Below, one piece after another: positions 1,663 to 19,452 of a stretch of 64,000 nucleotides of DNA. The notes beneath the pieces are model-generated. The model did not search any database. It had not been told where the DNA came from and saw nothing but the letters and a program-made list of their open reading frames with translations. The position numbers and the translations under genes were made by a program. Position 1 is the stretch's first letter. Each line of letters opens with the position of its first letter. The stretch comes from Candidatus Poribacteria bacterium (GTDB lineage Bacteria > Poribacteria > WGA-4E > WGA-3G). Location of the stretch: the NCBI GenBank assembly GCA_965198235.1, contig OZ240248.1, positions 2,720,001 to 2,784,000 of the forward strand. The letters are read 5' to 3'.

Positions 1663-1863
1663 TTGTCTGAATCAGGATTTTCAGGCTTCTTCGATCTTTG
1701 CAGGATCAAAGAACGCGCACTCTCTAAATCCTTCAGCCTTCTTCGCATTGGATTTTAGCGTTTGCGGGGCGATAGGTGTATAGCAGCAGAGTATCCACAC
1801 ACGTCTAAGCCCCAGCGGAGCGAAATGTGTGTAGTGTCTTTCTTAACATAGTTGTATCTAATT

Positions 1864-1985
1864 TAGGACTTACGCATGCTGCTCTTTTGTAGCATAAACT
1901 GTTAGTTTGTGCCAGCAGACCGTCTGTTTTTTGGGGGAATTCCCATCTAATAGAACGTGCTACCGTCAAAACTGCGTAAGTCCTA
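1864..1985. mobile_element. MITE-like element, family A
   Basis: 13-bp terminal inverted repeats TAGGACTTACGCA (1864-1876) and TGCGTAAGTCCTA (1973-1985), flanked by direct repeat TAATT. The same TIRs occur at 13044-13244. Confidence 0.7.
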
Positions 1986-2039
1986 TAATTGTTTGTTTCC
2001 ATTTGGACGGGATCTTTCACCAATTCACAAGGGGAAAGT

Positions 2040-3077
2040 ATGGGCTATAGCGATGGCAGAAAACAGGTGCAGCGTATCTTGAAAATAATAGATCGCCTCC
2101 AGAAATCAAACGGCATTAGAGTCCGCGATCTGGCGGATTTCTATGACGTTGATATCACCCGCATCTATGAAGACCTGAAAATTATTAAGGAGCTCTACGA
2201 GCTGAAAAAAGATAAGGGGGCTTACTGGATTGAGTCAGAACGTTTGCTACGCTGGCCCAGGATCACAGCCGAAGAGAGTCGCGCCCTAGAACTAGTAATT
2301 ACTGCTTCACCGCTTGCAAAAGAACCGCGTTTTGAGCAATCTCTCAAACGCGTTCTGGAAAAACTCGACACGTCGCTTGCGGAACACATCCAATCGAAAT
2401 TGGAGCAAAATACGCCAATTCAACTCCACAAAGTCGATACAGACGACGAAATTGAGGGACCTCTTCACCTTTCAGAGGATGCACCACCCTATAGTGCCGA
2501 TAGCAATGCTGTTGAGCAGCACTTTCGCGTTTTAGAGGAGGCACTTTACGAGCAAAAGGCGGTGCGGGCGAGTTATCAACCGGGTGGAAAACCGGAGCCT
2601 GTTGTACACCTGCTCCACCCGTATGCCATCTTCTTTCGGAAGGTGGATTGGTATCTTGAGGCGTACTCTAATCTATCAGAACACGCGTCGCTCACCTTCA
2701 AGATCCTCCGTTTTCAAAAGGTTGAATTGACAGAGGAAACGTTTGAGCCCCCTCCGGATTTTTCGTTGGCAGAGAATTTGGATTCTCGATGGGAGCTCTT
2801 TAGCGGTGAACCGCTCAACATCACGCTCAGAATCGCGGCGCACAAAGTGTATTTGGTTGAGGAAAAGCAGCGTCATCCCTCACAAGAGATTGTAGAACGG
2901 TGTGCAGATGGTGCGGTGATTGTCCGTTATGAGGTACCCAAAGAAGAATTCACATTTTGGGTATTGAGTTTAGGGGATGCGGCGGAGGTCTTGGATCCAC
3001 CTGAATTTCGGGCAGAGTTTCAGGAGATTGTCCAGCGGATACATGCGATCTATTCTAACCCAAGTTACTACTTATAA
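2040..3077 (+). CDS. HTH-WYL-WCX transcriptional regulator
   Basis: N-terminal wHTH (RVRDLADFYDVDITRIYEDL), WYL core (LHPYAIFFRKVDWYLEAY...FKILRF), HPSQ and LSLGDAAEVLDP C-terminal motifs. ATG at 2040 follows GGGGA. Confidence 0.92.
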   Translation: MGYSDGRKQVQRILKIIDRLQKSNGIRVRDLADFYDVDITRIYEDLKIIKELYELKKDKGAYWIESERLLRWPRITAEESRALELVITASPLAKEPRFEQSLKRVLEKLDTSLAEHIQSKLEQNTPIQLHKVDTDDEIEGPLHLSEDAPPYSADSNAVEQHFRVLEEALYEQKAVRASYQPGGKPEPVVHLLHPYAIFFRKVDWYLEAYSNLSEHASLTFKILRFQKVELTEETFEPPPDFSLAENLDSRWELFSGEPLNITLRIAAHKVYLVEEKQRHPSQEIVERCADGAVIVRYEVPKEEFTFWVLSLGDAAEVLDPPEFRAEFQEIVQRIHAIYSNPSYYL

Positions 3078-3279
3078 GATTTTCGGCATCCAGAGTCCCT
3101 GTTTCATTGAAAATCGTTGCTGATCGGCAGGGTTTTGTAGCGTATCCTGTTAGGTTGCGCACTAAGGCTTCTAACGCCGCTAAGGTTGACGTACTGCAGT
3201 TTTGTAGCGTATCCTGTTAGGTTGCGCACCCTTATGCACAAACTAACAGTTTATGCTACAAAGGTGGCAACTTGCGTTA
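3056..3279. mobile_element. MITE/REPIN-like element overlapping the WYL gene 3' end
   Basis: Imperfect TIRs TAACCCAAGTTACTAC and GTGGCAACTTGCGTTA (13/16 match), TTC on both flanks. Interior has GTAG-initiated REP-like units (TTTTGTAGCGTATCCTGTTAGGTTGCGCAC twice, plus a related inverted unit). A related end occurs near 19556. Confidence 0.55.
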
Positions 3280-3485
3280 TTCTATCTAGAAGATTGAAAG
3301 AGTCATAGAAACTGATTGCATAGGGCTATTTATAGTAAAGTTTACAATTATGTTTACATGCGGCCTTTACTGTCTGGTCGTTTGTAGTAGGGAAATCTCT
3401 TTCCTTTCACCTCCGGGGCCTCGTCCTATGGAATACATATAAATAGGGCGGGACACCGCAGCCCCACCCTATTGAGCACTTTACA

Positions 3486-3584
3486 CAGAAAACCACCTCG
3501 GTGAGAGATGGGCAACCTATCCTGTTGACCGGACAACAGGCATCTCGGCATACGCAACAGATTTCGGTTGCGATTTTACTTCTG
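3486..3584 (-). ncRNA. Putative structured small RNA, copy 1 of tandem pair
   Basis: 99-nt unit, 80/99 identical and ungapped versus 3623-3721. Three hairpins; the last is followed by TTTT on the minus strand. G-U pairs favour the minus strand. Confidence 0.55.
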
Positions 3585-3622
3585 ATTCTCTGCTAATGTT
3601 TGTAATGCCTTGGTTATTCGGG

Positions 3623-3721
3623 CAGAAAACCACCTTAGTGGGAGGTGGGCAACCTATCCTACCGACCGGTCGGTAGACAGCTCAGCATACGCAATAGTCT
3701 TCGGCTGCGATTTTACATCTG
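3623..3721 (-). ncRNA. Putative structured small RNA, copy 2 of tandem pair
   Basis: Compensatory changes in the central stem versus copy 1 (GTT/AAC to ACC/GGT). Lies directly downstream of a minus-strand promoter candidate. Confidence 0.55.
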
Positions 3722-3724
3722 CTG

Positions 3725-3773
3725 ATAATAACCTACCCTATTTCGCTTGCAAAATCAAGAAATTTGCGAAATA
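3725..3773 (-). promoter_or_regulatory. Candidate sigma70 promoter for the tandem RNAs, overlapped by an inverted repeat
   Basis: Minus strand TTGCAA (3747-3752), 16 nt spacer, TATTAT (3725-3730). Inverted repeat TATTTCGC-N19-GCGAAATA (3739-3773). Confidence 0.4.
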
Positions 3774-3857
3774 TCTGGATTTTTTTGGAAAAAAGACCGA
3801 ATTTTCTGCATTTTTAGGTCGAATTTTTTGGCTTTTGTGTAAAACGCCAATTTTATA

Positions 3858-3890
3858 TGGTATAATTAAGTATAAACCAAAAGGAGGGAA
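3858..3890 (+). promoter_or_regulatory. Extended -10 promoter and RBS of the cas operon
   Basis: TGgTATAAT at 3858-3866; AAGGAGG at 3881-3887 before ATG 3895. Confidence 0.65.
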
Positions 3891-3894
3891 ACGA

Positions 3895-6120
3895 ATGGTT
3901 GACATTGAGGGACACAAATCGAAAATTTTAGCAGCTCACATCGCAGCGACGATGGAAACATCCTCACCTCCAGAGGAACTCGAGGTATTTATACGCTCTC
4001 ACCGCGCCGAAGGTCAGCGTCTCAAACAGTGGTGGGATGATATGGATGCTTTACGCGTCATCCGATACGCCGAACGCCAGTGGAGAATTCACCCTCCAGA
4101 AACCGACCCGAATCCGAATTCAATTGGCAAACCCTCTATGGGGGTAGATGAGGTTGTTCTCTTCGCGGGCAAGGAAATTGGCAAAGTTTACAACTATTAC
4201 CGTACCGTGCTTCCGCAAGAAATGCAGATTCGGCTCGCTTATGACACCTTAATTGAGCGGTTCATAGAATTCCTACAAAGGAAGAAATGTGCTATTCGCC
4301 TTTCTGAAAACCAATTGACGTGTGTCTTATTTATTCCGGATACAGACTTTCCACTCGTAGATGAATGGCAACGGTTCGTCGAATTTGCTTATTCAGAAGA
4401 GGAGTTGTATAAGTCTTTTACACTATTTGTGAACAGCATGAAACTAACTAACAGAGGTTTTGGCTATGTCCACTTTCCATCGGTTACTGAAGCGATGAAG
4501 CTTTGGCAAGCTGCTTTTTATATCGCTACGCTTCGGGAAAGAGTTGTTCGGTACCCTGACAACTATAAGAAAGCCAAAACTGATAAGGAGCGCAGTGTTG
4601 CTGGGAACGCAAATCGCGAAGAGTTAAAATGCCTTTTAACCGAATTACGTGCTGAAGTGCCGAGTCACGCGCGTAGGTTTGATAAGGCGGTAGTGCTTTC
4701 TCACCAATTCAACCGAACTGGTTCAAGCCAATTTTCTTATGGCACAGTAAAGCCTCGCTCAAAGAAAGGGAAAATTGAAGATAAGATTGTTGAAATTCTG
4801 AATGAACCTCTTAGATTCCTAACTTGTCCTCTTGCTCCTGTTGATGAAATAGCACACGATTACGTCCATAGTGCTGGTGATACGGTAAAAAACCGTTGCT
4901 ATGGTTGCGGTAGGCATTTGCCTTCAAAAAGCGAAACTCGCGACTTTAAAGGCAAACTGGAGGCAAACCGATTTGTCTTCTCAGATCCTTCGCAAAGGTT
5001 GCAATCGGGGGGTGGGCAAGCCCAACCCGCTATATGCCTCGACTGTCTTTCAGTCGCTTTTGGTTGCCCCATTAAACTGACAGGGGGTGCGATTATAGTT
5101 CATTTGTCGCCACGAACTGTTGAAGACAACAATCCATTGTCGCGTGAGAAATATCTCCGGATGCTCACACTCGGGGAACTGAATCTGATTGCTGGGCGGT
5201 ATCTACTGATTAAATGTAATGACTTTATGCGCTCAACACCTGTATCCGAAAAAATAGGGCAGGTTCAATATGCACTCTGGCGTATTGCCCAAACACTTCC
5301 AACTGAAGCACTAAGTAAGATGCACTTTACCCTCTTCGCTGATGAATCGAAAATATCGTTGGAAACTCGCCATCTGGTTTGGCTTAGTCACCTCTATGAG
5401 TGTTTTTCACCTCGTATTATCGTGAACGGTAAAGACAATATTCCATTGGGGCAAGCGATCCGGCTCATTCAGAAAGATGAAGTGATTTTAGCTATCTATA
5501 AACTTGTGACAGCAGAGTCTACAGAAGCTAAACAACTCAGCAATTGGTCATACAATGAAAAACGGAGTCTTGAGGAACTCCGCGAAAAGCATTGTACCTT
5601 ACTTGAACAATCCTCAAAAGGAAATAAATTGATGTCGAAACAAGCAGACTTTTATCGGGACATCGCTGCCCTCACTGGGTTAACTTATGCTTATTGCGAC
5701 TACCTCCGCCGTGAGTTAAGAAAAAAGGAGAATACTGGCAAAGTCCAGCCAGGTACTGTCCAGCGAGAAGTCAAAAAACTTATTGAGAAAGTTGTAAATC
5801 CCAGTTTTTTCAACTACGAAGCCTCTGATGTTCTTCCCGGCACACGCGCTACGATGTACTGCAGCGATGATAACTATTTCTGTTACGCAGAGGCGAAGCA
5901 GTTGTTGGAAGGAACACTCAAGTTGGATCTATCCGACCGCGAGGGGCGCACCGACAAAGGACAAGAGTCGATGACTATCTTTTTTGATGACATTCTGAAC
6001 GCCTATGCCGCCTTATCTCAGAAGTACTGCAGGAAGGCACAGCAAAGGAAGTTGTCTTATCAACTCAAACTGAACCTTCACGCGAAGTTCGCATCCCTAT
6101 TCAATCAGAAAGGAGATTAA
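3895..6120 (+). CDS. Type I Cascade large subunit (Cas8/Cas10d-like, zinc finger, no HD domain), 741 aa
   Basis: First gene before cas7-cas5. Has CYGC...CLDC zinc-finger pair and a helical C-terminus. No HD motif is visible. Start moved from 3610 to ATG 3895 because of the strong RBS. Confidence 0.75.
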   Translation: MVDIEGHKSKILAAHIAATMETSSPPEELEVFIRSHRAEGQRLKQWWDDMDALRVIRYAERQWRIHPPETDPNPNSIGKPSMGVDEVVLFAGKEIGKVYNYYRTVLPQEMQIRLAYDTLIERFIEFLQRKKCAIRLSENQLTCVLFIPDTDFPLVDEWQRFVEFAYSEEELYKSFTLFVNSMKLTNRGFGYVHFPSVTEAMKLWQAAFYIATLRERVVRYPDNYKKAKTDKERSVAGNANREELKCLLTELRAEVPSHARRFDKAVVLSHQFNRTGSSQFSYGTVKPRSKKGKIEDKIVEILNEPLRFLTCPLAPVDEIAHDYVHSAGDTVKNRCYGCGRHLPSKSETRDFKGKLEANRFVFSDPSQRLQSGGGQAQPAICLDCLSVAFGCPIKLTGGAIIVHLSPRTVEDNNPLSREKYLRMLTLGELNLIAGRYLLIKCNDFMRSTPVSEKIGQVQYALWRIAQTLPTEALSKMHFTLFADESKISLETRHLVWLSHLYECFSPRIIVNGKDNIPLGQAIRLIQKDEVILAIYKLVTAESTEAKQLSNWSYNEKRSLEELREKHCTLLEQSSKGNKLMSKQADFYRDIAALTGLTYAYCDYLRRELRKKENTGKVQPGTVQREVKKLIEKVVNPSFFNYEASDVLPGTRATMYCSDDNYFCYAEAKQLLEGTLKLDLSDREGRTDKGQESMTIFFDDILNAYAALSQKYCRKAQQRKLSYQLKLNLHAKFASLFNQKGD
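5632..6120 (+). CDS. cas11: Probable internally translated Cas11 small subunit (162 aa)
   Basis: In-frame ATG at 5632 (MSKQADFYRD...) preceded by AAAGGA at 5617-5622. Size and position match the internal Cas11 of I-B/I-C/I-D large subunits. Confidence 0.6.
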   Translation: MSKQADFYRDIAALTGLTYAYCDYLRRELRKKENTGKVQPGTVQREVKKLIEKVVNPSFFNYEASDVLPGTRATMYCSDDNYFCYAEAKQLLEGTLKLDLSDREGRTDKGQESMTIFFDDILNAYAALSQKYCRKAQQRKLSYQLKLNLHAKFASLFNQKGD

Positions 6121-6125
6121 CCAAA

Positions 6126-7100
6126 ATGGCAATTAACGTGAAATCTGGGCTTGAAGATTATTCGGACAAACCGCGCTTCAACTTTGACATTTACGCAATC
6201 CTCGAAGGCGGTCAAGAACTCTTTTTCGGGCACGAAACGCAGGTGAATGTTAACATAGTTGAAACAGTCACTATCGCTTTACCTGATGGTGCCGGTGATG
6301 GTGGCGAACTTGAAAAATGCTATCTCTCTCCAACAAAGCGCCGTGGTGTTGAACGCCGTGCATTGATTTGGGCACCTACCGGAAATGGGTTGTTAGGAGA
6401 TTCCTTGAACTGTGGCATTCCGCATACGTGTAGTAAGGCAGAGTGCCCGATTTGTCGCGTTTTTGGAGGTCTCATCACAACTGCGACTGAAGTCAAGGGC
6501 GAATCCGAAAAACGTCCCGCAACAACCCTCATCGGACGCCTTACCCATAGCGGCGGTGTCGCGATTCAGGAATTGGGACCAGAAGAAAAGCAGCGTGCAA
6601 TGCACCCTTCAATGATACGGAAAGCACCCGAAGCCGATCCGACACCGACTCCCTTTAAGCGAGAATACAATCAACCAGGTCTCCTCTATCCAGTCTACAA
6701 TCACTGTTTGAGTATGACAGAAAGCGAATTCTACGCTGTGGCTTACGCATTCATGAGTGCGCTGGCGCGCTTAGGGGCAGGCAATCCTAAAGGTGTCAAA
6801 ATTCATGATGCCCCGCTTACAAAAGATGAAGATGAACCCTGGATAGTTGTTGACAAGTATCTGTCGCCACTTGGCAAACGGCCTATCATTTCACCCGCTA
6901 TTACGGATGTTGAAACAGCGAAAAGGCAGTTTACAAACGCTATCTTTTCAGTCGCGGGCGTTGAACAAGAACCTGCCAGCGAATTGACTCAGGGAAATTT
7001 CCACCGTTACGTCGGTGATGCCGCCATTGCCAAGTTATCAGAGTATTTGGTCAAGTTTGAAAAGGAGAAACTCAATGTGGATGCTGGAAATGGTGATTAA
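6126..7100 (+). CDS. cas7: Cas7 backbone subunit, Csc2/Cas7d-like
   Basis: KRRGVERR motif, C-x5-C-x4-CPIC-RVFG zinc cluster, IGRL and RLGAG G-loop. RBS AAAGGAG. Confidence 0.85.
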   Translation: MAINVKSGLEDYSDKPRFNFDIYAILEGGQELFFGHETQVNVNIVETVTIALPDGAGDGGELEKCYLSPTKRRGVERRALIWAPTGNGLLGDSLNCGIPHTCSKAECPICRVFGGLITTATEVKGESEKRPATTLIGRLTHSGGVAIQELGPEEKQRAMHPSMIRKAPEADPTPTPFKREYNQPGLLYPVYNHCLSMTESEFYAVAYAFMSALARLGAGNPKGVKIHDAPLTKDEDEPWIVVDKYLSPLGKRPIISPAITDVETAKRQFTNAIFSVAGVEQEPASELTQGNFHRYVGDAAIAKLSEYLVKFEKEKLNVDAGNGD

Positions 7101-7857
7101 ACCGACATCAGGGTTAACATTCCGACGGATGCCTTCGTCTATCTTGCATATCAGTACGTACCCGTTTCTACCACCGACGACGATGTCTGGATTTTTACGT
7201 CGATTGAAGATGTTGGAAGTTGGGCATCTACCGGAAACCGCTGTCAAAGATCCAGATTACTATGCCTTGCCTCCCCAACTTTGCACCCTTGGTGCGTATC
7301 CAAAAGTGAATGACTATCGCATTCATACAACAAAGCGTCAAGGAATCAGATCTTTCAACCATAACGCCTTCTCGCGAATTGTTAGGTACCAATCCAAGAA
7401 TGAAGTCTATCAACTTCATACATGGGAATACCTTTTCACGGAACAGCTCATCGGTTATGTGGTTTCGGAAGATGAGGAACTCTTAGGTCAATTGAGAACG
7501 ATTGAAAACTTTGGTTGTAAGATTGGCAAAGAGGGGTACGCTTTTGTAGATCAAATTTGTGGACCTACTCAACTCATTTTGGAACAAGTTAGAGCAAAAC
7601 CCGATACACTCCTCCCTGGAACAGCACTCATTGGAGTTCCATGCGAGGCATTTCCACTGTACCGCTATGCTTGGGAAATAGATGCCTCCGAACACACCAG
7701 CCTTGCACATCCAGAACCGAGTGCTATTGAAGGATTCATCCCATTTGTTGCTGGAGAAATTCGCGGTGAAATTGAACTCGATTATTATACCGATGGGAAC
7801 GTTCATCTTCCGAAGCCCTTCATTGATGAATTGCAGGAAGGAGAGTCAGATGGTTAA
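7075..7857 (+). CDS. cas5: Cas5 (RAMP)
   Basis: N-terminal TFRR...TYPFLPPTTMSGFL and C-terminal KIGKEG G-loop. ATG 7075 follows AAGGAG. Confidence 0.85.
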   Translation: MWMLEMVIKPTSGLTFRRMPSSILHISTYPFLPPTTMSGFLRRLKMLEVGHLPETAVKDPDYYALPPQLCTLGAYPKVNDYRIHTTKRQGIRSFNHNAFSRIVRYQSKNEVYQLHTWEYLFTEQLIGYVVSEDEELLGQLRTIENFGCKIGKEGYAFVDQICGPTQLILEQVRAKPDTLLPGTALIGVPCEAFPLYRYAWEIDASEHTSLAHPEPSAIEGFIPFVAGEIRGEIELDYYTDGNVHLPKPFIDELQEGESDG

Positions 7858-8641
7858 TGCAATGGATATTGTAGAGGTGGGACGGGTTTTCTTTCAATCT
7901 GATAGTGGACCTGATGTAAAAAAAGTAATAGTTCTTACATTAGATAGCCACGTTGAAAATGTCGTCACATTGGTGAAAAATTTTAAAAGAGATTTCTATC
8001 CAGCCTTCAAACAGAGTCAGAAATCGACTCGCGACCTTCTAATACGCGCTGCCGAGAAGCACGACGACGCAAAACCTGAGACCTTTCGCGTAACCTACCG
8101 AAGTTACAAGGAAAACGGACATAAATCTCTCGGTTATTCCTTTGCAGGACACCGCTTTAGAGTTTCCGATCCTGATCGTTATGTTGAACTTCTAATCCGT
8201 CTACATCACGAATTCTCCGTTGAAGGTATTGTCAAAGCACAAGCGGAACTCAAGGCACAAACGGGATCCGCCAATGAAAAGTTTAAAAACTTTCCTTTTG
8301 ATCTTTACATCTTAGAGATGTGTGATCAGATAGAGGCAGAACTTGAGACTTACGCTTTCACAGACGATGTTCAACCGCGGGTTTTTATGGATTTTCACTC
8401 CCGCCAGCGTGAGGATAGAATAATTGAAGTCAGCCCTTATCCATTTGATAGCGAGGATATCCCTCTATCGCTTGCATATTATGAATTCGATGTGTGCGAA
8501 GAACATTGTGGTCAAATATCTAAGGCTTTGATAGAGGATAATCACGGGAAAGGAGTTAACTTTCTCCGTGAAATGATTGTTAATGCACACAACAAAGCGG
8601 AATGTCAACGAAAGGAGATGATTCTATGCAAAGCGCAATAG
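7850..8641 (+). CDS. cas3'': Stand-alone Cas3'' HD nuclease (263 aa)
   Basis: Full HD ligand set in order: LDSH, AAEKHDDAK, FAGH, IRLHH, MCD. ATG 7850 follows AGGAG and overlaps the cas5 stop. Confidence 0.8.
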   Translation: MVNAMDIVEVGRVFFQSDSGPDVKKVIVLTLDSHVENVVTLVKNFKRDFYPAFKQSQKSTRDLLIRAAEKHDDAKPETFRVTYRSYKENGHKSLGYSFAGHRFRVSDPDRYVELLIRLHHEFSVEGIVKAQAELKAQTGSANEKFKNFPFDLYILEMCDQIEAELETYAFTDDVQPRVFMDFHSRQREDRIIEVSPYPFDSEDIPLSLAYYEFDVCEEHCGQISKALIEDNHGKGVNFLREMIVNAHNKAECQRKEMILCKAQ

Positions 8642-10413
8642 AGGCTTATCAAAATCTTGCAAAATTCAAGCCAAATCCGATGCAAGAAGAACTTTTCTCT
8701 CGCATCGCAAACGAATATCTGAATCCTGCGCTTCTGCTCAAAGCACCCACAGGGAGCGGGAAAACGGAGGCGGTTCTCATTCCGAGCCTTAACGCCGAAC
8801 GTAGGCTTTTCCTCATTTTTCCTTCACACAGCCTCGTTGATGATCAGATTGAGCGGTGTGAAAAGTATCTCCAGTGTGCCTCCGAAAAAACAGGCAGGTC
8901 TTATGCCCTTGTAATTGACACCGGCGCGGAATCTGTTCGCACTGTTTTTAAGGATGGCGAAGCATTAGAAAAAGGGAGACGTCATCTCTACGATGGCGAT
9001 GTAATTCTCACAACATTTGACAAATTCCTGTACCGATTTTTCGGGTTTGGTGAACCTAAAAAATCTTATATTTTCCCCTTCCGTATTCACCATAGCCAAC
9101 GTCGAAATCTTTTCTGTTTTGATGAAGTACATGCTTACGATCAAGTTGCGTTTGTCAATTTTCAACGTCTTGTCAAAGCACTCTACACAGCAAATCTGGA
9201 TATGGTTGTTATGACAGCAACAATGCCTGACACCTACCAGAAGGAGTTAAATTTCTTGGATAGGGTTGATTACATTACAGGGGAAAATCAACTGAAACTG
9301 GAAAGGTGGCAGGAAAAAGAACAAAATCGACAGTATCCCGATAAGAAAATTAAACATATTGCTGCAAAGCCAAAAGAGGTTAGAAACGAAATCTGTGCCT
9401 ATGTATCTCAGCAGTATGAGTCAAGTAAGCGGACTATTGTCACCATTGAAACGATTGAGAACCTCATTCCGGTTTACCAGTATATGAAAGAGCGGAATCG
9501 CGGGGAGAACATTTTTCTTTACCACGGTCGGCTTACCAATCCACAACGCAAGAAAATTTATTGTAAACTAAAGGAGCGTGAAAACAACGATAAAGGGTAC
9601 TTGCTTTTCACAACGAGCGCTATTGAGGTGGGATGTGACCTTGACGCACATCTGCTTATCACGGAATTGTGCAATCCTGATTCGCTCATCCAACGTGCAG
9701 GAAGGTGCAATCGCAAGGGGCAGATTCCTAACGCTGAAATCGTCATTGTAGGTAACAAAATTCCCTCTTTTCTCTCTATCCTTTCTAAGGAGAAAACAGA
9801 AAAATATCTTGAGAAATTGCAGCAGCAGAGTGGAGGCAACTTCAACCCGGACGACATCCTTGTACTCATGAAATACGCGCCACACTCCGACTATAGAGCG
9901 GAAGTGCTCTTTGACATGTTATATGAATACGTCTACGAAGCCCGATTGGAGAACAAACCTTTGCACGATAGAGGGCTTGTGATTACACGGAGTTTTGAAC
10001 CCTCACTAACCCTCACAACCAAAGTGCTACAGGAGTCTGATAACCACCGACCGGAAAATGCTGTAAGTGTCTCTATTCAAAGTTGCATCACTAAGGGTGG
10101 AGAAGGTGAGTCTGTTAATCAAGATTTTAAGGTATACCAGCGATTTTATGATGAGCATCGCGAGGAATTCAAATTTGTTCAGCTTAATAGGGGCGGAAGT
10201 ATTTATTTTAAAGAACTCTTTGTTGAGGTGCCTGAATGTTACTTTTCTGAAGAGTTAGGCTATGTTGAACCGCCCAAAGTGTTTGAAGACCGCAGCACTC
10301 GGGGGTACCGGCGGAATTTTGTTTATCACAGAACTGAAGATGGCAAGCCTAAAGATATCTGGTTACACTATTTGAAAGATTTAGAGAAACCTCAGTCTGA
10401 AGATGAAGCCTAA
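8626..10413 (+). CDS. cas3': Cas3' SF2 helicase without HD domain (595 aa)
   Basis: Motifs PTGSGKTE, DEVH, MTAT, YHGRL, TSAIEVGCD and QRAGRCNR. Has its own RBS AAAGGAG before ATG 8626. Confidence 0.92.
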   Translation: MQSAIEAYQNLAKFKPNPMQEELFSRIANEYLNPALLLKAPTGSGKTEAVLIPSLNAERRLFLIFPSHSLVDDQIERCEKYLQCASEKTGRSYALVIDTGAESVRTVFKDGEALEKGRRHLYDGDVILTTFDKFLYRFFGFGEPKKSYIFPFRIHHSQRRNLFCFDEVHAYDQVAFVNFQRLVKALYTANLDMVVMTATMPDTYQKELNFLDRVDYITGENQLKLERWQEKEQNRQYPDKKIKHIAAKPKEVRNEICAYVSQQYESSKRTIVTIETIENLIPVYQYMKERNRGENIFLYHGRLTNPQRKKIYCKLKERENNDKGYLLFTTSAIEVGCDLDAHLLITELCNPDSLIQRAGRCNRKGQIPNAEIVIVGNKIPSFLSILSKEKTEKYLEKLQQQSGGNFNPDDILVLMKYAPHSDYRAEVLFDMLYEYVYEARLENKPLHDRGLVITRSFEPSLTLTTKVLQESDNHRPENAVSVSIQSCITKGGEGESVNQDFKVYQRFYDEHREEFKFVQLNRGGSIYFKELFVEVPECYFSEELGYVEPPKVFEDRSTRGYRRNFVYHRTEDGKPKDIWLHYLKDLEKPQSEDEA

Positions 10414-10515
10414 CTCCCACCCTCGGAACCGCTTGAAACAGAAAACCGTAAAACGGCGGAATCAGTCCTTTCGCCTCCAGAAGAGGGTGAACAGTTGAGC
10501 CTATTTGAGCATTGA
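10414..10515 (+). other. 33-codon in-frame continuation after the cas3' stop, ending QLSLFEH
   Basis: Reads LPPSEPLETENRKTAESVLSPPEEGEQLSLFEH. TGA at 10513-10515 lies immediately before the cas6 RBS. Confidence 0.6.
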
Positions 10516-10530
10516 TTAAGGAGACCATCC

Positions 10531-11361
10531 ATGCCCATCAGCACACTCATCTCACTCATACCGGAAACCGATGTAACACTCCGCCCAACGATGGGACACC
10601 ATGCACACGCCGCGTTTCTCGCGATCATTCGGAAAAGCGACCCGAACCTCGCAAAAACGCTCCACGCACAATCGGCGCAAAAACCGTTTACGGTTTCACC
10701 ACTCATCGCAGCCGCAAAAAAGCGCGATAATCAGCTGCACATCATGGCAGGCACCGAGTGCAAACTCCGATTCACGTTTCTTGAGGATACGCTCTTTACA
10801 GCCTTCGGGCGCGCTTTTTTAACATTTGAATTGCCCACGATTCGACTCGGAGAAGCGACCTTTCAGGTGAAGCAATGGGTTTCACACGCCACGGAGGAGC
10901 GGAGTTGGAGCGGGAGCGCAACGTACGCAGAACTCATCCAATCCGCAAAAACCGATACACAAATGTCTTTCCGATTCTATTCACCGACAGCCTTTCGACG
11001 GCTGACACCGCGCGGGCAGCAAACCCGTAGCGACGCGTACCCCGATCTCGTGCGCTGCTATCAGAGCTGGGTCAATAAGTGGAATGCCTTCGCACCCATA
11101 AAACTTGACAGAACCGAAATCCTCGCCTTCATTACGGAGTATGGACAGGTGACGAGCATAACAACGAAATCACGAGCACTTAACTTCGGAAAGCATACCG
11201 AGATCGGGTGGGTTGGCACGTATGCGTGTGTCTTCTATCCAGAAGATTCGCTTGACCCCGATCTGCGCCGGGCAGTCAACTGCTTAGCAGCTTTCGCTTT
11301 CTACTGCGGCACCGGCTACAAAACCACCATGGGAATGGGACAGACGAGGCGGGTTGATTGA
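10531..11361 (+). CDS. cas6: Cas6 crRNA endoribonuclease
   Basis: KPFTVS, FYSPTAF and C-terminal G-loop FAFYCGTGYKTTMGMG. Confidence 0.95.
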   Translation: MPISTLISLIPETDVTLRPTMGHHAHAAFLAIIRKSDPNLAKTLHAQSAQKPFTVSPLIAAAKKRDNQLHIMAGTECKLRFTFLEDTLFTAFGRAFLTFELPTIRLGEATFQVKQWVSHATEERSWSGSATYAELIQSAKTDTQMSFRFYSPTAFRRLTPRGQQTRSDAYPDLVRCYQSWVNKWNAFAPIKLDRTEILAFITEYGQVTSITTKSRALNFGKHTEIGWVGTYACVFYPEDSLDPDLRRAVNCLAAFAFYCGTGYKTTMGMGQTRRVD

Positions 11362-11381
11362 GACTGAAGGAGCACTGAACG

Positions 11382-13019
11382 ATGTCAGAAACCTATATAC
11401 CACTTTCACAGATAAACACTTACGTCTTCTGTCCTCGGCGATTCTACTATGAATCTGTTGAAGGGCATCAGGTCGTTAATGACCACATCGAAGAAGGCAA
11501 AATCAAGCACGAACATGTCCATACAGCAGTGACAGACCGGAAAAAAGGAGATAAGACTATCTCTCGACGGCAATACCTTGCTTCGGATACACTCGGCGTG
11601 TCTGGCTACACCGACCTCGTTGAGGAGAAAGACGGCATCCCATACCCTGTTGAATTCAAAAAGGCGGGTATGGGGAATTGGCGTAATGATCAGGTTCAAC
11701 TCTGTTTGCAAGGACTCTTACTGGAGGAGAAAACAGGGATTTCAATTCCGCACGGCTATGTCTTTTACATCGGCTCAAAACGGCGGCGGAAGGTTCCGTT
11801 TGACAAGGAACTCCGTGAGGCAACACTCCGGTATGTAGCGGAGGCACACTCGCTACTTGACTCACGTAAAATTCCGAAACCCATTCACGATAATCGATGC
11901 AATGGCTGTAGCGTCCGCCCGATTTGTCTACCTGATGAGATCGCTTATCTCCACGAATTAGATGAGCGACCAAAACGTATCAAACCCGCGCTCGGCATTG
12001 ATAATGTCCTATACATCGATGAACAGGGGTGTGCTATCAAAAAGACCGGAGAACGCATCCTCGTCGTTAAAGAGGACGAAATTCTCCGTGATATTCCATT
12101 AATCCATCTCGGTCAGGTAGTCATCTCTGGCAACGTTAACCTCACCACACCAGCAATGCAAACACTCTTGCACGAAGGGATTCCAGTTGTTTTCCTCTCC
12201 GCCTATGGACGATACCATGGCGCATTGACACCACAAGTGTCTCGGAATTCTCTTTTACGGAGCGCGCAGCATAGAGTTGCAAATAGTCCGGACGCGTGCC
12301 TTGATCTCTCAAAAGCGTTTGTTCATGGGAAATTGGCGAACATGCGGACGATGCTGCAACGTCGGAAATGGCAGGCGACAGACGCTACAGATTCGGCATT
12401 GGAACCTTTGTTGACTAACATTAAAGCGATACAAGCAATGGAAAAGCGTATTGGTAAGTCAACTGAACTTCCAGAGTTATTGGGAATCGAAGGAAACGCT
12501 TCTGCGGCGTATTTTGGAGCATTCGGTTTCATGCTGAAAGAGGAAATGGGTTTTGATTTCCAGCGGCGGAGTCGGCGTCCACCAGCGGATGCGACGAACG
12601 CACTACTGAGTTTCGCTTATTCATTACTGACAGCCGATCTCATGTCTGCAATCCAGACGGTCGGGTTAGACCCTTATGTCGGTTTCTTTCACCAGATCAA
12701 GTATGGTAAACCGTGCCTCGCACTTGATTTGATGGAGGAATTCCGTCCCATTATTGCGGATTCAGTTGTGATTACACTCATCAACAACCGCCGTATCAAG
12801 CCTACAGATTTCACGCAATCCCACGGGGGCTGGTATCTAAAGGAGAATTGTCGGAAAGTGTTTTACGCCGCATACGAGACGCGGAAAAATGAGACCATTA
12901 CACACCCTGTTTTTAAATATAAGCTCACATTTCGCCGGGCAATGGAATTACAGGTACGCTTGCTGGCGAAATATCTCACAGGCGAAATTGAACAGTATAC
13001 ACCGTTGACGGTTCGGTAG
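11382..13019 (+). CDS. cas4-cas1: Cas4-Cas1 fusion
   Basis: Cas4 part: CPRR, GYTD...PVEFK, QLCLQ, CNGCSVRPIC. Cas1 part: GIEGNAS, NALLSFAY, GFFH, DLMEEFRP. Confidence 0.95.
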   Translation: MSETYIPLSQINTYVFCPRRFYYESVEGHQVVNDHIEEGKIKHEHVHTAVTDRKKGDKTISRRQYLASDTLGVSGYTDLVEEKDGIPYPVEFKKAGMGNWRNDQVQLCLQGLLLEEKTGISIPHGYVFYIGSKRRRKVPFDKELREATLRYVAEAHSLLDSRKIPKPIHDNRCNGCSVRPICLPDEIAYLHELDERPKRIKPALGIDNVLYIDEQGCAIKKTGERILVVKEDEILRDIPLIHLGQVVISGNVNLTTPAMQTLLHEGIPVVFLSAYGRYHGALTPQVSRNSLLRSAQHRVANSPDACLDLSKAFVHGKLANMRTMLQRRKWQATDATDSALEPLLTNIKAIQAMEKRIGKSTELPELLGIEGNASAAYFGAFGFMLKEEMGFDFQRRSRRPPADATNALLSFAYSLLTADLMSAIQTVGLDPYVGFFHQIKYGKPCLALDLMEEFRPIIADSVVITLINNRRIKPTDFTQSHGGWYLKENCRKVFYAAYETRKNETITHPVFKYKLTFRRAMELQVRLLAKYLTGEIEQYTPLTVR

Positions 13020-13043
13020 AATTATGGTGAATTATAAAAATAA

Positions 13044-13244
13044 TAGGACTTACGCATTCTCTCTTAAAGTCCCCCTGATAAGGGGCGGGGAATGCCATAC
13101 GGGGAATGCCATACGGCATTCATACCGTTGATTCGCATTCATACCCGGGGAAGCCCACATGGGCTTCATACCGTTGATTCTGATTCTTTAGGGGGTTAAA
13201 TACAACGAAATATGCCCTTTTCTGTTCAATTTGCGTAAGTCCTG
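13044..13244. mobile_element. MITE-like element, family A, between cas1 and cas2, with nested palindromic units
   Basis: TIRs TAGGACTTACGCA and TGCGTAAGTCCTG; direct repeat AAATAA at 13038-13043 and 13245-13250. Confidence 0.75.
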
Positions 13245-13415
13245 AAATAAATAGACACTTCAGCGAACGATGGATGAGAATGCGTCCTTGCGCCCCTGTC
13301 TCTCCTCCCTTCTACCCTTCCGTTGGATGAGAGTATACGGGCGTAGAGAAGCATATTCTCTTTCATCCTTGTCACTATGTGAATTTCAGGAAGGAAAATT
13401 AATGAGGAATCACTA

Positions 13416-13688
13416 ATGCATTACACAGTTGCTTACGATATTACAAATGACAAACGACGGAATAGGGTTGCTAAAATACTGAAGGATTTTGGGACCCGCA
13501 TCCAATATAGTGTTTTTGAATGTGACACGGATCGGCGCGCACTACTACGCTTGCAGGACCGATTGAAAAAGACAATCAATTTGGGAGAGGATACAATCAC
13601 CTTCTACCATCTCTGTGCGGCGTGTGAAAAACAGATTGACCGGATAGGCATAAAAAAAGGGCTTGACAAACAGTCGTATATCGTGTAG
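13416..13688 (+). CDS. cas2: Cas2
   Basis: VAYDITNDKRR...RIQYSVFEC, 90 aa. Confidence 0.95.
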   Translation: MHYTVAYDITNDKRRNRVAKILKDFGTRIQYSVFECDTDRRALLRLQDRLKKTINLGEDTITFYHLCAACEKQIDRIGIKKGLDKQSYIV

Positions 13689-13886
13689 AGTTAGGTATCA
13701 ACAAATTTCTGTGCGCGAAAGCGGACCGAAAAACCTGTAACCCTCACAGAAAGGCGGGAAACCTTATGATTCGTGCTTTCACGCTTTCCTTAGAATATTT
13801 CTGGCGGCTGGGGTTAGGACAAAATACCTCGCTCGCGGAAATACCCATAATTGAGGCACGTCTGGTATGGCTTCCGGTGGGGCGGA
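13689..13886 (+). promoter_or_regulatory. CRISPR leader
   Basis: Non-coding 198 bp between cas2 and the first repeat. The degenerate repeat is at the opposite end of the array. Confidence 0.75.
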
Positions 13887-16800
13887 CTTGAAACGAAAAG
13901 CATCTCGATTACGAGATTGAAACATGTTCTGGTCAATTGCCCATCGTAGCGAAACCCGTAAGGACTTGAAACGAAAAGCATCTCGATTACGAGATTGAAA
14001 CTGAAAAAGGATTCTGTACTCTTAATTCTGGAGAGAAATCGCTTGAAACGAAAAGCATCTCGATTACGAGATTGAAACTAAGTTTAAGTGCCTTCTGCCA
14101 ACCGGGGAATTGGCTTGAAACGAAAAGCATCTCGATTACGAGATTGAAACCTTCATGGGACATGTGATGCATATAGTGACGTATGTGCTTGAAACGAAAA
14201 GCATCTCGATTACGAGATTGAAACAAAAGCATAATCAAAAGTATCATAAGGAAACGGAATTTTCTTGAAACGAAAAGCATCTCGATTACGAGATTGAAAC
14301 AAGATGTGATGTTGATTCAAATAGACGAATTTCCCTATGCTTGAAACGAAAAGCATCTCGATTACGAGATTGAAACATGTGTATCCTACAGCACCACCAT
14401 AAGGAGTAGGTAGACTTGAAACGAAAAGCATCTCGATTACGAGATTGAAACAAGAAAATATCAAAAAATGGGGCGAGTGCCCAATCTCACTTGAAACGAA
14501 AAGCATCTCGATTACGAGATTGAAACAATGAGGTATTCAAGACCGGGTGTTTCTGAGACGATAACCTTGAAACGAAAAGCATCTCGATTACGAGATTGAA
14601 ACGAGACGATAGCAACTCCAGTCAGCGACAACCCGTTAGGCTTGAAACGAAAAGCATCTCGATTACGAGATTGAAACTGAAACCGACTTGTCTGCGTTGC
14701 GGACGTTGAAACCCGCTTCCTTGAAACGAAAAGCATCTCGATTACGAGATTGAAACTAAGAATAACTTCTACGTCAAGACAAATACTCAGTTCCTTGAAA
14801 CGAAAAGCATCTCGATTACGAGATTGAAACAAGATGATATGAGTATTCGCCGGAAATTGCGGGCGGGCTTGAAACGAAAAGCATCTCGATTACGAGATTG
14901 AAACAATATCATATTTCTGATGATACAATCGTCATCAGAAAACTTGAAACGAAAAGCATCTCGATTACGAGATTGAAACAGGGTACTGAACGCAGTGTCC
15001 GACTTCGCTTCGTATTCTTGAAACGAAAAGCATCTCGATTACGAGATTGAAACCCATATACTTCTATGTCGCTGAAATTGGCATTGCGATCTATACCTTG
15101 AAACGAAAAGCATCTCGATTACGAGATTGAAACGAAGGATTAGGACGGGTAGGGGACAGCGTAAATATACGCTTGAAACGAAAAGCATCTCGATTACGAG
15201 ATTGAAACTGAACACTACGTGCCAGCGTCACGATTGACACTAAAGGAGCCTTGAAACGAAAAGCATCTCGATTACGAGATTGAAACTCGATCGTCGTTAT
15301 CCGAAAGCATGCTTGCCGGCGGTTTCTTACTTGAAACGAAAAGCATCTCGATTACGAGATTGAAACATTGGAATGATGCCGCGACGGAGTTGTTGAAATC
15401 TCTTGAAACGAAAAGCATCTCGATTACGAGATTGAAACACCCGTAATGCTTCAATGACCCTATGGGGTCATCCCTACTTGAAACGAAAAGCATCTCGATT
15501 ACGAGATTGAAACTTGATTTTGACTTCAGGTATCGGTTTGGTTCGGATTTCTTGAAACGAAAAGCATCTCGATTACGAGATTGAAACTCTTGCTAACTTC
15601 CCATCATGGGAGCAGTTTTTGCGGACTTGAAACGAAAAGCATCTCGATTACGAGATTGAAACTTGGGAAAAGCAGGCAGCGTTACAGGGGAAGACTTTAC
15701 TTGAAACGAAAAGCATCTCGATTACGAGATTGAAACCTGAATCGGGGATCACTTTATCATCAAAGCCTCTTTTTCTTGAAACGAAAAGCATCTCGATTAC
15801 GAGATTGAAACGAAGCATTTGGAACACTAACGAAATGGGATGCATTGCGCTTGAAACGAAAAGCATCTCGATTACGAGATTGAAACATGCTAATGATACG
15901 ATCATGCTACAACGAAACCAACTTGAAACGAAAAGCATCTCGATTACGAGATTGAAACGATTACTGCTGCGAGGTCTATGTATTGGTTGTTTTTGTCGCT
16001 TGAAACGAAAAGCATCTCGATTACGAGATTGAAACTACAGTCAACTCTATGCGGTAACTCACGCCAAAATCGACTTGAAACGAAAAGCATCTCGATTACG
16101 AGATTGAAACCTCAAGGTATCGCAGGAAGTCGGTGTCGGTGTCAAGCTTGAAACGAAAAGCATCTCGATTACGAGATTGAAACAAAACCGGTAGCGACAT
16201 GGAAGCGGAAGCGGACGAAACTTGAAACGAAAAGCATCTCGATTACGAGATTGAAACTGGTAAGTTACCCGATACGTGTCCAACTGATACGACTCCACTT
16301 GAAACGAAAAGCATCTCGATTACGAGATTGAAACCCCGCGTCAATATCCGCCGCGCTTGCCATGCTGTCCTTGAAACGAAAAGCATCTCGATTACGAGAT
16401 TGAAACAAAAGAAAGAAATAACCTCATCAATGAGATGGCAGACTTGAAACGAAAAGCATCTCGATTACGAGATTGAAACAAACACGGGGAAAAGGCTCTC
16501 CCAGTGGCGGCCGTCTTCTAATCTTGAAACGAAAAGCATCTCGATTACGAGATTGAAACACTATTGAGTTCGGGTCTGAGGGGTGGAATATCATCTCACT
16601 TGAAACGAAAAGCATCTCGATTACGAGATTGAAACTATGGCAAGATTTAGAGATTCAGATAGACCCTTATACGCTTGAAACGAAAAGCATCTCGATTACG
16701 AGATTGAAACGACAGAGCGATAAACTTGATACCTTCCCAAGCGATTTGTCTTGAAACGAAAAGCATCTCGATTACGAGATTGAAACACATCTTCAGTCTG

Positions 16801-18140
16801 CGTCTGTGCAGCGACACTGCCCGTTCTTGAAACGAAAAGCATCTCGATTACGAGATTGAAACCCGGATAGCACCACCGTCGGTATATCAAACTTGCCTAC
16901 TTGAAACGAAAAGCATCTCGATTACGAGATTGAAACGAAATATATGCTGGCGATACGTCTGATAGAATTGCTAACTTGAAACGAAAAGCATCTCGATTAC
17001 GAGATTGAAACGTCAGTTATATCGTCATGATGGGAAAGGTATCTGCTGACCTTGAAACGAAAAGCATCTCGATTACGAGATTGAAACCCGTCAGGTTCTC
17101 AAGTCGTTTCTCAAGAGATACCCCTTGAAACGAAAAGCATCTCGATTACGAGATTGAAACTAAAATAAGCGCGCCCGCAATCATTATCGTTTCTTGTACT
17201 TGAAACGAAAAGCATCTCGATTACGAGATTGAAACCCTTGTGTCCCGCGCCTTCACGCCTCGTTACCCCAGTAATCTTGAAACGAAAAGCATCTCGATTA
17301 CGAGATTGAAACAACCCTAAAGACGAGGGGCTTGATTTCGGACCCCGTGCGCTTGAAACGAAAAGCATCTCGATTACGAGATTGAAACAATTTGCACGCG
17401 AAACCCCAGTGGAGAGTGCCGTCGCTTGAAACGAAAAGCATCTCGATTACGAGATTGAAACACCGCATCTGAAATTAAGCGATCGACGTTTTGCGCGACT
17501 TGAAACGAAAAGCATCTCGATTACGAGATTGAAACCGTCTATCATACTGTTCGCACATTCCAAAACCCCGCAAACTTGAAACGAAAAGCATCTCGATTAC
17601 GAGATTGAAACTGCGGTGATATTCACTTGAACGGCTGAAATCCGTTCAACTTGAAACGAAAAGCATCTCGATTACGAGATTGAAACGCATGAGGAAGGGA
17701 ATGACGAAACGAATCTGTCGGCGCCTTGAAACGAAAAGCATCTCGATTACGAGATTGAAACTCTTTTGGTTGCGAATTGGCAAGAGATAAAGCCATAACC
17801 TTGAAACGAAAAGCATCTCGATTACGAGATTGAAACGATATTGCCAAGCGGGTTCTGATGAATCAGTTAAACTTGAAACGAAAAGCATCTCGATTACGAG
17901 ATTGAAACTCTACCTGTTCAATGAAACCAACAACATTTTCTACAAGGTCGATCCTGACTTGAAACGAAAAGCATCTCGATTACGAGATTGAAACGCTTGT
18001 GACGACCACGGATGGCACGGTTGTTTTGCCTTGAAACGAAAAGCATCTCGATTACGAGATTGAAACCTTACGAAACGGGCACTCGCCAGACTGCATCCAT
18101 GCCTTCTTGAACCAACAAATACTCGATTCCGATATAAAAC
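13887..18140 (+). CRISPR. CRISPR array: 56 identical 37-bp repeats CTTGAAACGAAAAGCATCTCGATTACGAGATTGAAAC, one degenerate terminal repeat, 56 spacers
   Basis: Counted by eye from 13887 to 18066. Degenerate copy CTTGAACCAACAAATACTCGATTCCGATATAAAAC at 18106-18140. Spacers mostly 35-43 nt, one 49 nt. 3' ATTGAAAC handle and CTCG-ATTA-CGAG hairpin. Confidence 0.99.
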
Positions 18141-18214
18141 TCACCAATTTTCCAATCTTCTCCCTTCCATCCAACAACATTCGTCCAAAATGCGCGAAAG
18201 AAGTCAAAAAATAT

Positions 18215-18243
18215 TTGCATTCAACCGTTTTTTATGATATACT
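18215..18243 (+). promoter_or_regulatory. Candidate sigma70 promoter
   Basis: TTGCAT, 17 nt spacer, TATACT with a TG extension, upstream of the 18320 ORF. Confidence 0.55.
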
Positions 18244-18319
18244 TAAAATAGTTATACTTAATAGAGTTTGTCTACATAATCGGAAGCGTTATACTTTCCC
18301 TAATAATGGAGGGTAGAAA

Positions 18320-19249: not shown

Positions 19250-19409
19250 AACGATTCCGCTTAATTTAGATTTACTGTATCGCTGGCGAGGTTTCCTTGA
19301 GAAAAAAGAAACGCCCTATCAAAAACCCCTATCAAAAACCCCTCGCCCACATATTTCCAGAACCCATCGGAAATTTCAACGACCACGGATCACCCTTAAC
19401 TCACGAAAT

Positions 19410-19452
19410 TTTCATAGCAGTTTCATAGCAGTTTCATAGCAGTTTCATAGCA
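19410..19452. repeat. Tandem 11-bp repeat TTTCATAGCAG x4
   Basis: Directly visible. An inverted copy TGCTATGAAA occurs near 19532. Confidence 0.85.

Follow-up and report, generated by a model that had tools for sequence, protein, structure and literature searches.

We analyzed a stretch of 64,000 nucleotides (nt) from Candidatus Poribacteria bacterium, which lives in association with sponges (assembly GCA_965198235.1, contig OZ240248.1, positions 2,720,001 to 2,784,000; hereafter the window), which carries a type I CRISPR-Cas locus between positions 2040 and 18140. The locus comprises nine genes, all of them open reading frames (ORFs) on the forward strand, followed by a CRISPR array. It opens with the gene of a WYL-domain regulator of HTH-WYL-WCX architecture (2040..3077; Pfam WYL 3.6e-11 and WCX 6.5e-14, PADLOC WYL 1.1e-29). 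After 818 nt without an ORF comes the gene for the large subunit (LS; 3895..6120, 741 amino acids, aa), and this gap holds, in the leader of the effector operon, two tandem copies of a structured RNA-like motif (3480..3727, forward strand). Next stand cas7 (6126..7100), cas5 (7075..7857), a gene for a free HD nuclease, cas3'' (7850..8641, 263 aa), and a helicase-only cas3' (8602..10413), and then cas6 (10531..11361), a cas4-cas1 fusion (11382..13019, 545 aa) and cas2 (13416..13688). The cas5 ORF opens at 7015, and its start at 7075 was chosen from the PADLOC match and from relatives; the likelier start of cas3' is the ATG at 8626, with AAGGAG upstream. The stretch that separates cas2 from the first repeat (13689..13886) is, by its position, the presumed CRISPR leader; the degenerate repeat stands at the opposite end of the array. 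The array itself (13887..18140) reads in the same direction and consists of a 37-nt repeat in 56 identical copies, with a degenerate one at the end. An initial annotation of this stretch had given the same gene order and the same 56 repeats, and had described the ORFs as intact and the repeats as invariant; the ORFs and the repeat count bear out both descriptions.

LS, Cas7 and Cas5 are matched by dedicated PADLOC profiles labelled CAS-I-B. LS matches PDLC01527 ("Cas8b, CAS-I-B effector_LS") with E 1.6e-116 when taken from 3895 to 6120 and 2.5e-116 for the ORF 3610-6120, and each of its 28 relatives matches this model and no other large-subunit model. Of 14 control genomes searched with PDLC01527, Thermus thermophilus alone gave a match. 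Cas7 matches PDLC01388 (Cas7b, 5.7e-108, profile positions 2-262 of 264), and Cas5 matches PDLC01389 (Cas5b, 5.5e-79, positions 1-246 of 258) together with a second Cas5b model (7.1e-6). In Pfam and NCBIfam no match was found for LS, Cas7, Cas5 or the HD protein, nor was a PDB relative of LS, Cas7 or the HD protein found by phmmer or profile search. The effector had been held to be unclassified, a view that would be undermined if every effector gene matched a single described subtype over its full length and in the same order. Such matches were obtained for LS, Cas7 and Cas5, which also have orthologues on the T. thermophilus plasmid pTT27, whereas the HD protein is matched by no library (Pfam, NCBIfam or PADLOC).

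The description of LS as a large subunit with a zinc finger and without an HD domain stands: cysteines C335, C338, C381 and C384 are invariant across the 28 relatives, and the N-terminal part has neither an invariant His or Asp nor a conserved His/Asp pair. A Pfam scan of the 28 LS sequences gave stray matches only, and Cas_CXXC_CXXC was absent. Met580 (nt 5632) is the sole Met in residues 500-620, AAGGA lies 9 nt upstream of it, and a Met falls in the same 17-column stretch in 27 of the 28 relatives. In the predicted model, the C-terminal part forms a helical bundle after a disordered linker (543-550). A start at Met580 fits an internally translated Cas11, the candidate small-subunit frame being 162 aa long (5632..6120, forward strand), and no ORF for a separate cas11 lies between LS and cas7. 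Internally translated Cas11 has been reported for other type I systems (bioRxiv 10.1101/2020.04.18.045682; I-D review PMC10212523).

A scan with one genome per species identified 60 loci bearing Cas7 relatives, in Poribacteria, to which the closest named relatives of the window belong, in many cyanobacteria, and in Tectomicrobia, Myxococcota, Binatia and Deinococcota. Within contig limits, all 60 keep the gene order LS-cas7-cas5-HD-helicase-cas6-cas4/cas1-cas2. The cyanobacterial members (for example Picosynechococcus PCC 73109 plasmid, Calothrix NIES-4105, Nostoc spp.) show the series LS-cas7-cas5-cas3-cas6-cas4-cas1-cas2 with Cas7 50-56% identical to that of the window, and RefSeq names the Picosynechococcus Cas1 "Cas1d". 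Unlike the window, they encode a fused Cas3 (885-938 aa), keep cas4 apart from cas1, and have an inserted coiled coil of about 100 residues in LS.

A search of plasmid proteins with Cas7 found 49% identity on T. thermophilus pTT27 and 55% on Picosynechococcus plasmids. In strains HB8 and HB27, the pTT27 loci comprise a WYL gene, three "hypothetical" genes in the place of LS, cas7 and cas5, and then cas3 and cas6, with cas4, cas1 and cas2 also present. All nine window proteins have homologues in both loci at 27-49% identity (Cas7 49%, Cas5 45%, LS 32%, HD 33%, helicase 37-41%). The Thermus LS matches the same PADLOC model, and the Thermus repeat ends in ATTGAAAC, as does that of the window. Two differences stand out: Cas3 is a single HD-helicase protein in Thermus (HB8, 817 aa) and split in the window, and the Thermus cas4, cas1 and cas2 are separate genes that are divergently transcribed. 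The arrays adjoining the HB27 locus bear exactly Repeat-3 of PMC12102369, given there as the I-B-specific repeat. By these comparisons, the window effector genes are orthologous to the experimentally studied "type I-B" system on pTT27 of T. thermophilus HB27 and HB8. In the Thermus usage of the name, the window thus has the features of type I-B: an LS of the Cas8b family by label, Cas7b and Cas5b, a Cas3 made of HD and helicase, cas6, no separate cas11, and orthology to a studied system whose loci are collinear and whose adjoining repeat is the published I-B one. According to published work, this Thermus system mediates interference and genome editing in vivo with a TTC protospacer adjacent motif (PAM; PMC10989782); its native Cascade was pulled down on Cas8b, Cas3 co-purifies without an R-loop, and the non-target strand is degraded in an ATP-dependent manner (PMC12102369). 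Interference and Cascade composition have been demonstrated by others for the orthologue; for the window, the present analysis establishes homology, gene content, synteny, motifs and folds, as well as the exchange of modules and the sharing of repeats.

The helicase half of Cas3 is readily recognized, as Cas3' passes NCBIfam cas3_core (160.8 bits, cut-off 102.45) and matches Pfam DEAD, Helicase_C and Cas3-like_C_2. When aligned with 13 fused Cas3 proteins from this lineage, the HD protein falls on residues ~11-265 and the helicase on ~280-890. The motifs of the HD protein (H34, H71-D72(-K75), H101, H119-H120 and D159) are unchanged in each of the 18 sequences compared. With the predicted HD model (predicted local distance difference test, pLDDT, 87.1), Foldseek returned nothing at E <= 0.001, the best rows being chains of an HD-containing tRNA nucleotidyltransferase and GppA. 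A wide structural comparison with the PDB gave a match list made of HD-superfamily proteins; its best row is PPX/GppA (Z 9.0, root-mean-square deviation, rmsd, 3.9, 130 residues aligned), and it includes Cas3-HD 8wth_A (Z 7.6, rmsd 4.4, 127 aligned), T. fusca Cas3 4qqw_A (Z 7.0, rmsd 4.5, 134 aligned) and type I-A Cas3'' 7tr8_Q (Z 6.5, rmsd 4.9, 145 aligned).

Fused HD-helicase ORFs of 817-938 aa occur in cyanobacteria, Thermus, Tectomicrobia and others. Over 64 sources, Cas3 was split in 28, fused in 33 and unscorable in three, and all 24 rows scored in the Poribacteria clade, the window included, are split. A Cas7 tree was built with 62 rows, sources without one uninterrupted match of more than 250 residues being left out and a midpoint root being used for drawing only. 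In this tree the Poribacteria rows, 23 in number, group in a single clade (SH-aLRT 99), and every one of them is split. Outside that clade, Cas3 is also split in a Myxococcota/Binatia pair, in a long-branched Polyangiales row and in a single metagenome-assembled Nostoc genome. The fused and split states need at least three changes, two of which are forced by well-supported branches. The Poribacteria split persists with overlapping ORFs across a clade diverged to 55-90% identity. A recurrent assembly error was considered and is unlikely, given the split in all 24 clade rows scored. Judging from these alignments, the HD gene is the N-terminal part of an ordinary Cas3, in the known Cas3''/Cas3' arrangement, and no step towards Cas10d; the proposal that the free HD gene marks such an intermediate is contradicted by its collinearity with the N-terminus of the 13 fused proteins. 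Type I-A also has HD nuclease and helicase as separate genes, and its Cas3'' 7tr8_Q and Cas8a 7tr6_C are among the structural matches of the HD protein and of LS, respectively. The window differs from it in having no separate csa5 between LS and cas7 and in its other effector families, and no Cas8a or Csa5 model matches in the window. As a separate observation, RefSeq annotates cas3 of HB27 (L093:10606-13055) as two ORFs of 600 and 219 aa and that of HB8 (L091:10606-13059) as one of 817 aa; the HB27 record may contain a frameshift.

The genes that surround this effector cassette bear a different stamp, and the earlier remark that the locus mixes parts assigned to different subtypes by curated models holds. 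For the service genes, the best partial PADLOC models are those of type I-D, namely Cas6d, Cas4d and Cas2d. Cas6 passes NCBIfam cas_cas6 (62.2 bits, cut-off 58.65) and matches PADLOC Cas6d PDLC02042 over its full length (2.2e-42), residues 2-192 of the Cas4-Cas1 fusion match PADLOC Cas4d (4.1e-67), and Cas2 matches Pfam CRISPR_Cas2 (8.4e-25) with Cas2d as its best PADLOC model (1.9e-30). The fusion falls just below the cut-off of NCBIfam cas1_CYANO (384.4 bits versus 385). Type I-D loci (Synechocystis; Poribacteria loci L110-L133 of our set) draw WYL, cas6, cas4, cas1, cas2, repeat and leader from the same stock and, like the window, have a helicase-only Cas3'. They differ in having Cas10d with an N-terminal HD domain, Csc2 and Csc1, all three absent from the window, whose HD is a separate Cas3''; no NCBIfam Csc3, Csc2 or Csc1 match was found in it. 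The likeness of the window to type I-D lies in the service parts, namely cas6, cas4, cas1, cas2, WYL and the repeat.

Sampling of 121 Poribacteria genomes found the LS family in 16, Csc2 above its cut-off in 48 and the fused Cas4-Cas1 above its cut-off in 49. Twenty-four extra loci were taken from genomes with a Cas4-Cas1 fusion but no LS match; 23 of them carry I-D genes, and the remaining one is a 7.3-kb contig stump. In two of these loci, L113 and L110, Csc3, Csc2, Csc1 and cas3_cyano all score above their NCBIfam cut-offs. The I-D locus L113 is 82% identical to the window in WYL, 76% in Cas6, 92% in Cas4-Cas1 and 88% in Cas2, and its repeat agrees with that of the window at 33 of 37 positions; the initial annotation was correct in calling the WYL regulator and the repeat I-D-like. 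Over the 23 Poribacteria I-D loci, cas6 is 56-83% identical to that of the window. Exactly the same repeat is found in I-B-type and I-D loci in two cases (L020 = L119 and L017 = L131), the window repeat not being among them. Cas4-Cas1 fusions had also been described as typical of type I-G and of Myxococcus-type systems, but the fusion of the window is no pointer to type I-G. It does pass the cut-off of NF049935, the NCBIfam model named cas4g_cas1g (626.8 bits, cut-off 560), as do the fusions of all 49 Poribacteria genomes counted above, but the window lacks Cas8g (Csx17), Cas7g and a Cas5-Cas6 fusion, and Cas3g reaches 141.3 bits against a cut-off of 400. Among 47 examined loci, the fusion accompanies I-D genes in 23, the I-B-type cassette in 23, both in one, and I-G genes never; it stands with I-D genes in 23 of 23 sampled Poribacteria loci that have enough sequence.

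In a Cas4-Cas1 tree of 43 rows, from which loci without an uninterrupted full-length match were left out, the nearest row to the window is the I-D locus L113. The effector label, scored on 41 rows, needs 15 changes; shuffled labels need 14-15.6 on average, and 413-484 of the 500 shuffles give a count as low. At least 8-10 of the changes are forced by well-supported branches. Effector type is distributed on this tree as if at random. Moreover, two loci carry both cassettes. In L013 (971-16950) the order is WYL, I-D cas3', cas10d, csc2, csc1, LS, cas7, cas5, HD, cas3', cas6 and cas4-cas1, all of these ORFs being open, with cas2 as a tblastn match (78% identical) followed by at least 46 repeats. 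In L047 (1247-18175; Nostoc sp. CHAB 5824), the LS operon is immediately preceded by cas10d-csc2-csc1. In each of the two loci, both effector sets have a single cas6, a single adaptation module and a single array between them. Within the window, no I-D gene remnants beyond chance were found in 3051-3920, and a genome-wide search of the genome from which the window comes found no Csc2, no paralogous cas genes and no second array. A literature search at title level found no description of an I-B type CRISPR in Poribacteria or of this gene arrangement, nor of I-B/I-D cassette exchange, a Cas4-Cas1 fusion in type I-D or the RNA motif.

Altogether, we consider it likely that the locus is a mosaic, in which a Thermus-type I-B interference cassette with Cas3 fission sits in an I-D-type frame with a fused Cas4-Cas1, because the effector lineage is of I-B type while the frame is common to true I-D loci. 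The locus is real and intact; in our assessment, it is probably a working-looking type I system made of two modules of different descent, and neither a new subtype nor an intermediate. One module, LS-cas7-cas5-cas3''-cas3', appears to belong to the lineage found on T. thermophilus pTT27, in many cyanobacteria and in other phyla. The second, comprising WYL, the conserved leader, cas6, cas4-cas1, cas2 and the 37-nt repeat, seems to be the same frame that hosts an I-D cassette elsewhere in Poribacteria, and effector cassettes appear to have been exchanged within it repeatedly. From the homology with Thermus and general knowledge of type I systems, a mechanism can be outlined. Cas6 would cut the precursor CRISPR RNA (crRNA) at the hairpin, leaving the 8-nt handle ATTGAAAC, and LS, the internally started Cas11, several Cas7 subunits, Cas5 and Cas6 would assemble a Cascade on the crRNA. 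The PAM would be read by LS before an R-loop forms, and Cas3'' and Cas3' would jointly act as a split Cas3 that nicks and degrades the non-target strand. Cas4-Cas1 and Cas2 would insert PAM-selected spacers at the leader on the cas2 side. For this locus, we infer the Cascade assembly, the PAM, the Cas3''-Cas3' partnership, Cas11 and the regulation.

The leader of the effector operon deserves attention in its own right. Within the WYL-LS gap, I-B-type and I-D loci alike conserve a stretch of about 400 nt (67-88%). The motif in this stretch is a unit of ~110 nt with three helices, arranged in tandem (3480-3590 and 3617-3727). Of 48 Poribacteria loci, 22 contain it, with 43 copies of at least 85 nt in total, each of them on the strand of the operon. 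RNAalifold predicted 20 pairs from 41 aligned copies, 13 of them with compensatory changes. Paired cells amount to 94.4%, against 85.2% after shuffling (0 of 500 as high) and 26-46% when partners are slid, and the covariation score is 0.338 versus 0.172. Rfam gave no match on 1-20000 at the gathering threshold, nor on 3080-3900 at E <= 1. A covariance model (R1) finds just these two copies in the genome of the window and matches in 37 of 121 Poribacteria genomes, all belonging to one family. RNA-library contigs from two studies, whose source relatives are 90-95% alike, cover cas6-cas4/cas1-cas2 and the motif. Contig depth at the motif is ~45 times that at cas4-cas1 in one run and 1-5 times in another, whose kind is not recorded. 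Since contigs do not measure expression, this hints only weakly at an abundant motif RNA. The same contigs give no cover on the effector genes (3916-10009); the source relatives may carry I-D cassettes. The conserved and covarying pattern makes the motif a candidate for a new cis-regulatory or small RNA. Upstream of it, on the WYL-proximal side, lies a perfect 31-nt direct repeat (3132-3162 and 3199-3229), which a promoter-like site (3186-3215) overlaps.

The repeat CTTGAAACGAAAAGCATCTCGATTACGAGATTGAAAC occurs in 56 exact copies at 13887-18066, against 0 expected from 100 shuffles, and the degenerate copy that closes the array runs to 18140. No two of the 56 spacers, which are 35-49 nt long, are the same, and this is the only array with CTTGAAACGAAAAGCATCTCGATTACGAGATTGAAAC in its genome. 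No self-target of at least 24 nt was found in that genome for the window spacers, and none of them matches outside arrays, either there or in any locus examined. Only one of 1251 Poribacteria spacers has a non-array match in the same search space: this is spacer 5 from the L113 I-D array, which matches the genome of the window (C1:4804483-4804518, 35/36) and L121 (17200-17235, 34/36). Both protospacers have GTC directly 5' on the spacer-sense strand; the PAM of type I-D is given as GTN in a review (PMC10212523). The protospacer on C1 sits in a 363-aa ORF adjoining a 235-aa helix-turn-helix ORF, a pair that looks IS607/TnpB-like by eye. The matching sequence of L121 is located in its gap between cas4-cas1 and cas2.

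Several observations weigh against the mosaic interpretation. The best Foldseek match of the predicted LS model (pLDDT 83.1, predicted template modelling score 0.77) is Cas10d: the top three chains, 7sba_I (E 2.8e-4), 6thh_C and 6yes_A, are all Cas10d, and I-B Cas8b chains come next. VIA-align ties Cas10d (7sba_I; Z 5.5, rmsd 7.7, 405 aligned) with the Cas8 of an I-B CRISPR-associated transposon (CAST; 8fcj_I; Z 6.1, rmsd 7.3, 344 aligned) and with Cas8a (7tr6_C; Z 5.8, rmsd 4.6, 279 aligned), all within one Z unit. By these folds LS is a type I large subunit with a weak likeness to Cas10d, and they allow nothing finer. Profile comparison with hhalign was negative against canonical cyanobacterial I-B families (probabilities: LS 0.8%, Cas7 2.9%, Cas5 30%) and equally against I-D families drawn from 14 cyanobacterial loci (LS/Cas10d 0.05%, Cas7/Csc2 6.4%, Cas5/Csc1 1.5%). 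Because the alignments are shallow and negative for both, they are uninformative on the subtype; the match of Cas7 to Csc2 spans 29 columns only, and the I-D-like character ascribed to Cas7 by the initial annotation finds no backing in it. The I-B name is therefore conventional, resting on profile labels, gene content and literature usage and not on shown similarity to classic Cas8b. The PAMs of the two kinds of system may also be incompatible: the Thermus system was tested with TTC, type I-D uses GTN, and the sole Poribacteria I-D protospacer flank is GTC. Furthermore, the I-D loci were chosen for having the fusion without LS, and the sample is silent on the frequency of other effector types; the adaptation tree may simply mirror host phylogeny.

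The lack of profile similarity to canonical cyanobacterial Cas8b, Cas7b and Cas5b keeps alive a minority view, in which the effector lineage is a subtype of its own misfiled under I-B, LS is an HD-less relative of Cas10d, and the window belongs to an undescribed subtype. The unmatched status of LS, Cas7, Cas5 and HD in Pfam and NCBIfam, the "hypothetical protein" that RefSeq gives for the corresponding genes, the failure to find a PDB relative by sequence or profile and the Cas10d chains at the top of Foldseek all lend it something. We judge it improbable nonetheless: type I-B is loosely defined around diverse Cas8b families, VIA-align does not favour Cas10d over I-B CAST or I-A Cas8, the hhalign value for Cas10d is negligible, and the lineage already has I-B-labelled profiles, I-B also being the name used by the Thermus authors. 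An evolutionary intermediate between type I-D and Cas3-containing type I systems, with the HD domain moving between LS and Cas3, would account for an I-D-type frame, an HD-less LS and a free HD gene occurring together. This scenario is disfavoured and we regard it as very unlikely, as the HD protein lines up with the start of same-lineage fused Cas3, Cas3 is fused in Thermus (at the midpoint root, which serves for drawing only) and in most other lineages, and LS, Cas7 and Cas5 have no similarity to Cas10d, Csc2 and Csc1; cassette exchange explains the I-D-like parts, and L013 bears both cassettes. Decay of the locus, with a dead interference module behind a persisting array and adaptation genes, might be read from the transposon-like element between cas4-cas1 and cas2, the split cas3, the long intergenic gaps and the ORF-free 818 nt before LS, and the activity of the window locus is indeed a prediction from sequence. 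Such decay has in our estimate only a slim chance of being correct, given nine open genes, invariant HD catalytic residues, identical repeats with unique spacers, a split conserved with overlapping ORFs throughout the diverged clade, and a conserved covarying motif inside the 818-nt gap.

If the mosaic reading is right, the repeated exchange of whole effector cassettes within a fixed processing, adaptation and regulatory frame would be a clean natural case of CRISPR-Cas modularity. Loci with two effectors make shared crRNA and PAM choice between two Cascades directly testable. The split Cas3 would be a natural two-piece version of the system reportedly used for genome editing in Thermus, and the leader motif may be a new element that controls CRISPR effector expression in cis. 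For annotation, the lesson is practical: automatic typing of such loci will mislead, because Pfam and NCBIfam give a name to only one of the five interference genes and call the fusion "I-G". One may go further and suppose that the I-D Cascade and the Thermus-type I-B Cascade with split Cas3, two unrelated complexes, are interchangeable plug-ins on one Poribacteria chassis (Cas6, repeat, Cas4-Cas1/Cas2 and WYL), that some genomes run both from one array (L013, Nostoc CHAB 5824), that the I-B-type LS has converged on GTN, the PAM of type I-D, and that either cassette stands under an undescribed tandem riboswitch-like RNA leader. We put this forward tentatively and consider the whole of it rather doubtful. 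If it were true, the two complexes would have to take up one and the same crRNA and work with whichever PAM a single Cas4-Cas1 selects.

The gap between cas4-cas1 and cas2 contains an insertion (13045..13243, no strand assigned) resembling a miniature inverted-repeat transposable element, with the terminal inverted repeat AGGACTTACGCA. A second copy bounded by AGGACTTACGCA lies at 1865-1984, between an hsdR fragment and WYL, and a related 42-nt piece near 3236-3277. In public runs, the contig depth of this element is very high and its joints are many. At the corresponding site of a relative, one RNA-library contig links 13019 to 13399 via 207 different letters. In another Poribacteria locus (L021), cas7 (8444-8659 / 10001-10777) and cas4-cas1 (15041-15250 / 16590-18023) are interrupted by insertions of ~1.3 kb. 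The hsdR fragment is a 5'-truncated type I restriction R-subunit gene (1-1662, Pfam T1R_D3-like) that runs off the start of the window. On the downstream flank, 19931-21886 and 22450-24339 hold two adjacent SPFH/Band 7 genes and a DUF6785+DUF6784 protein.

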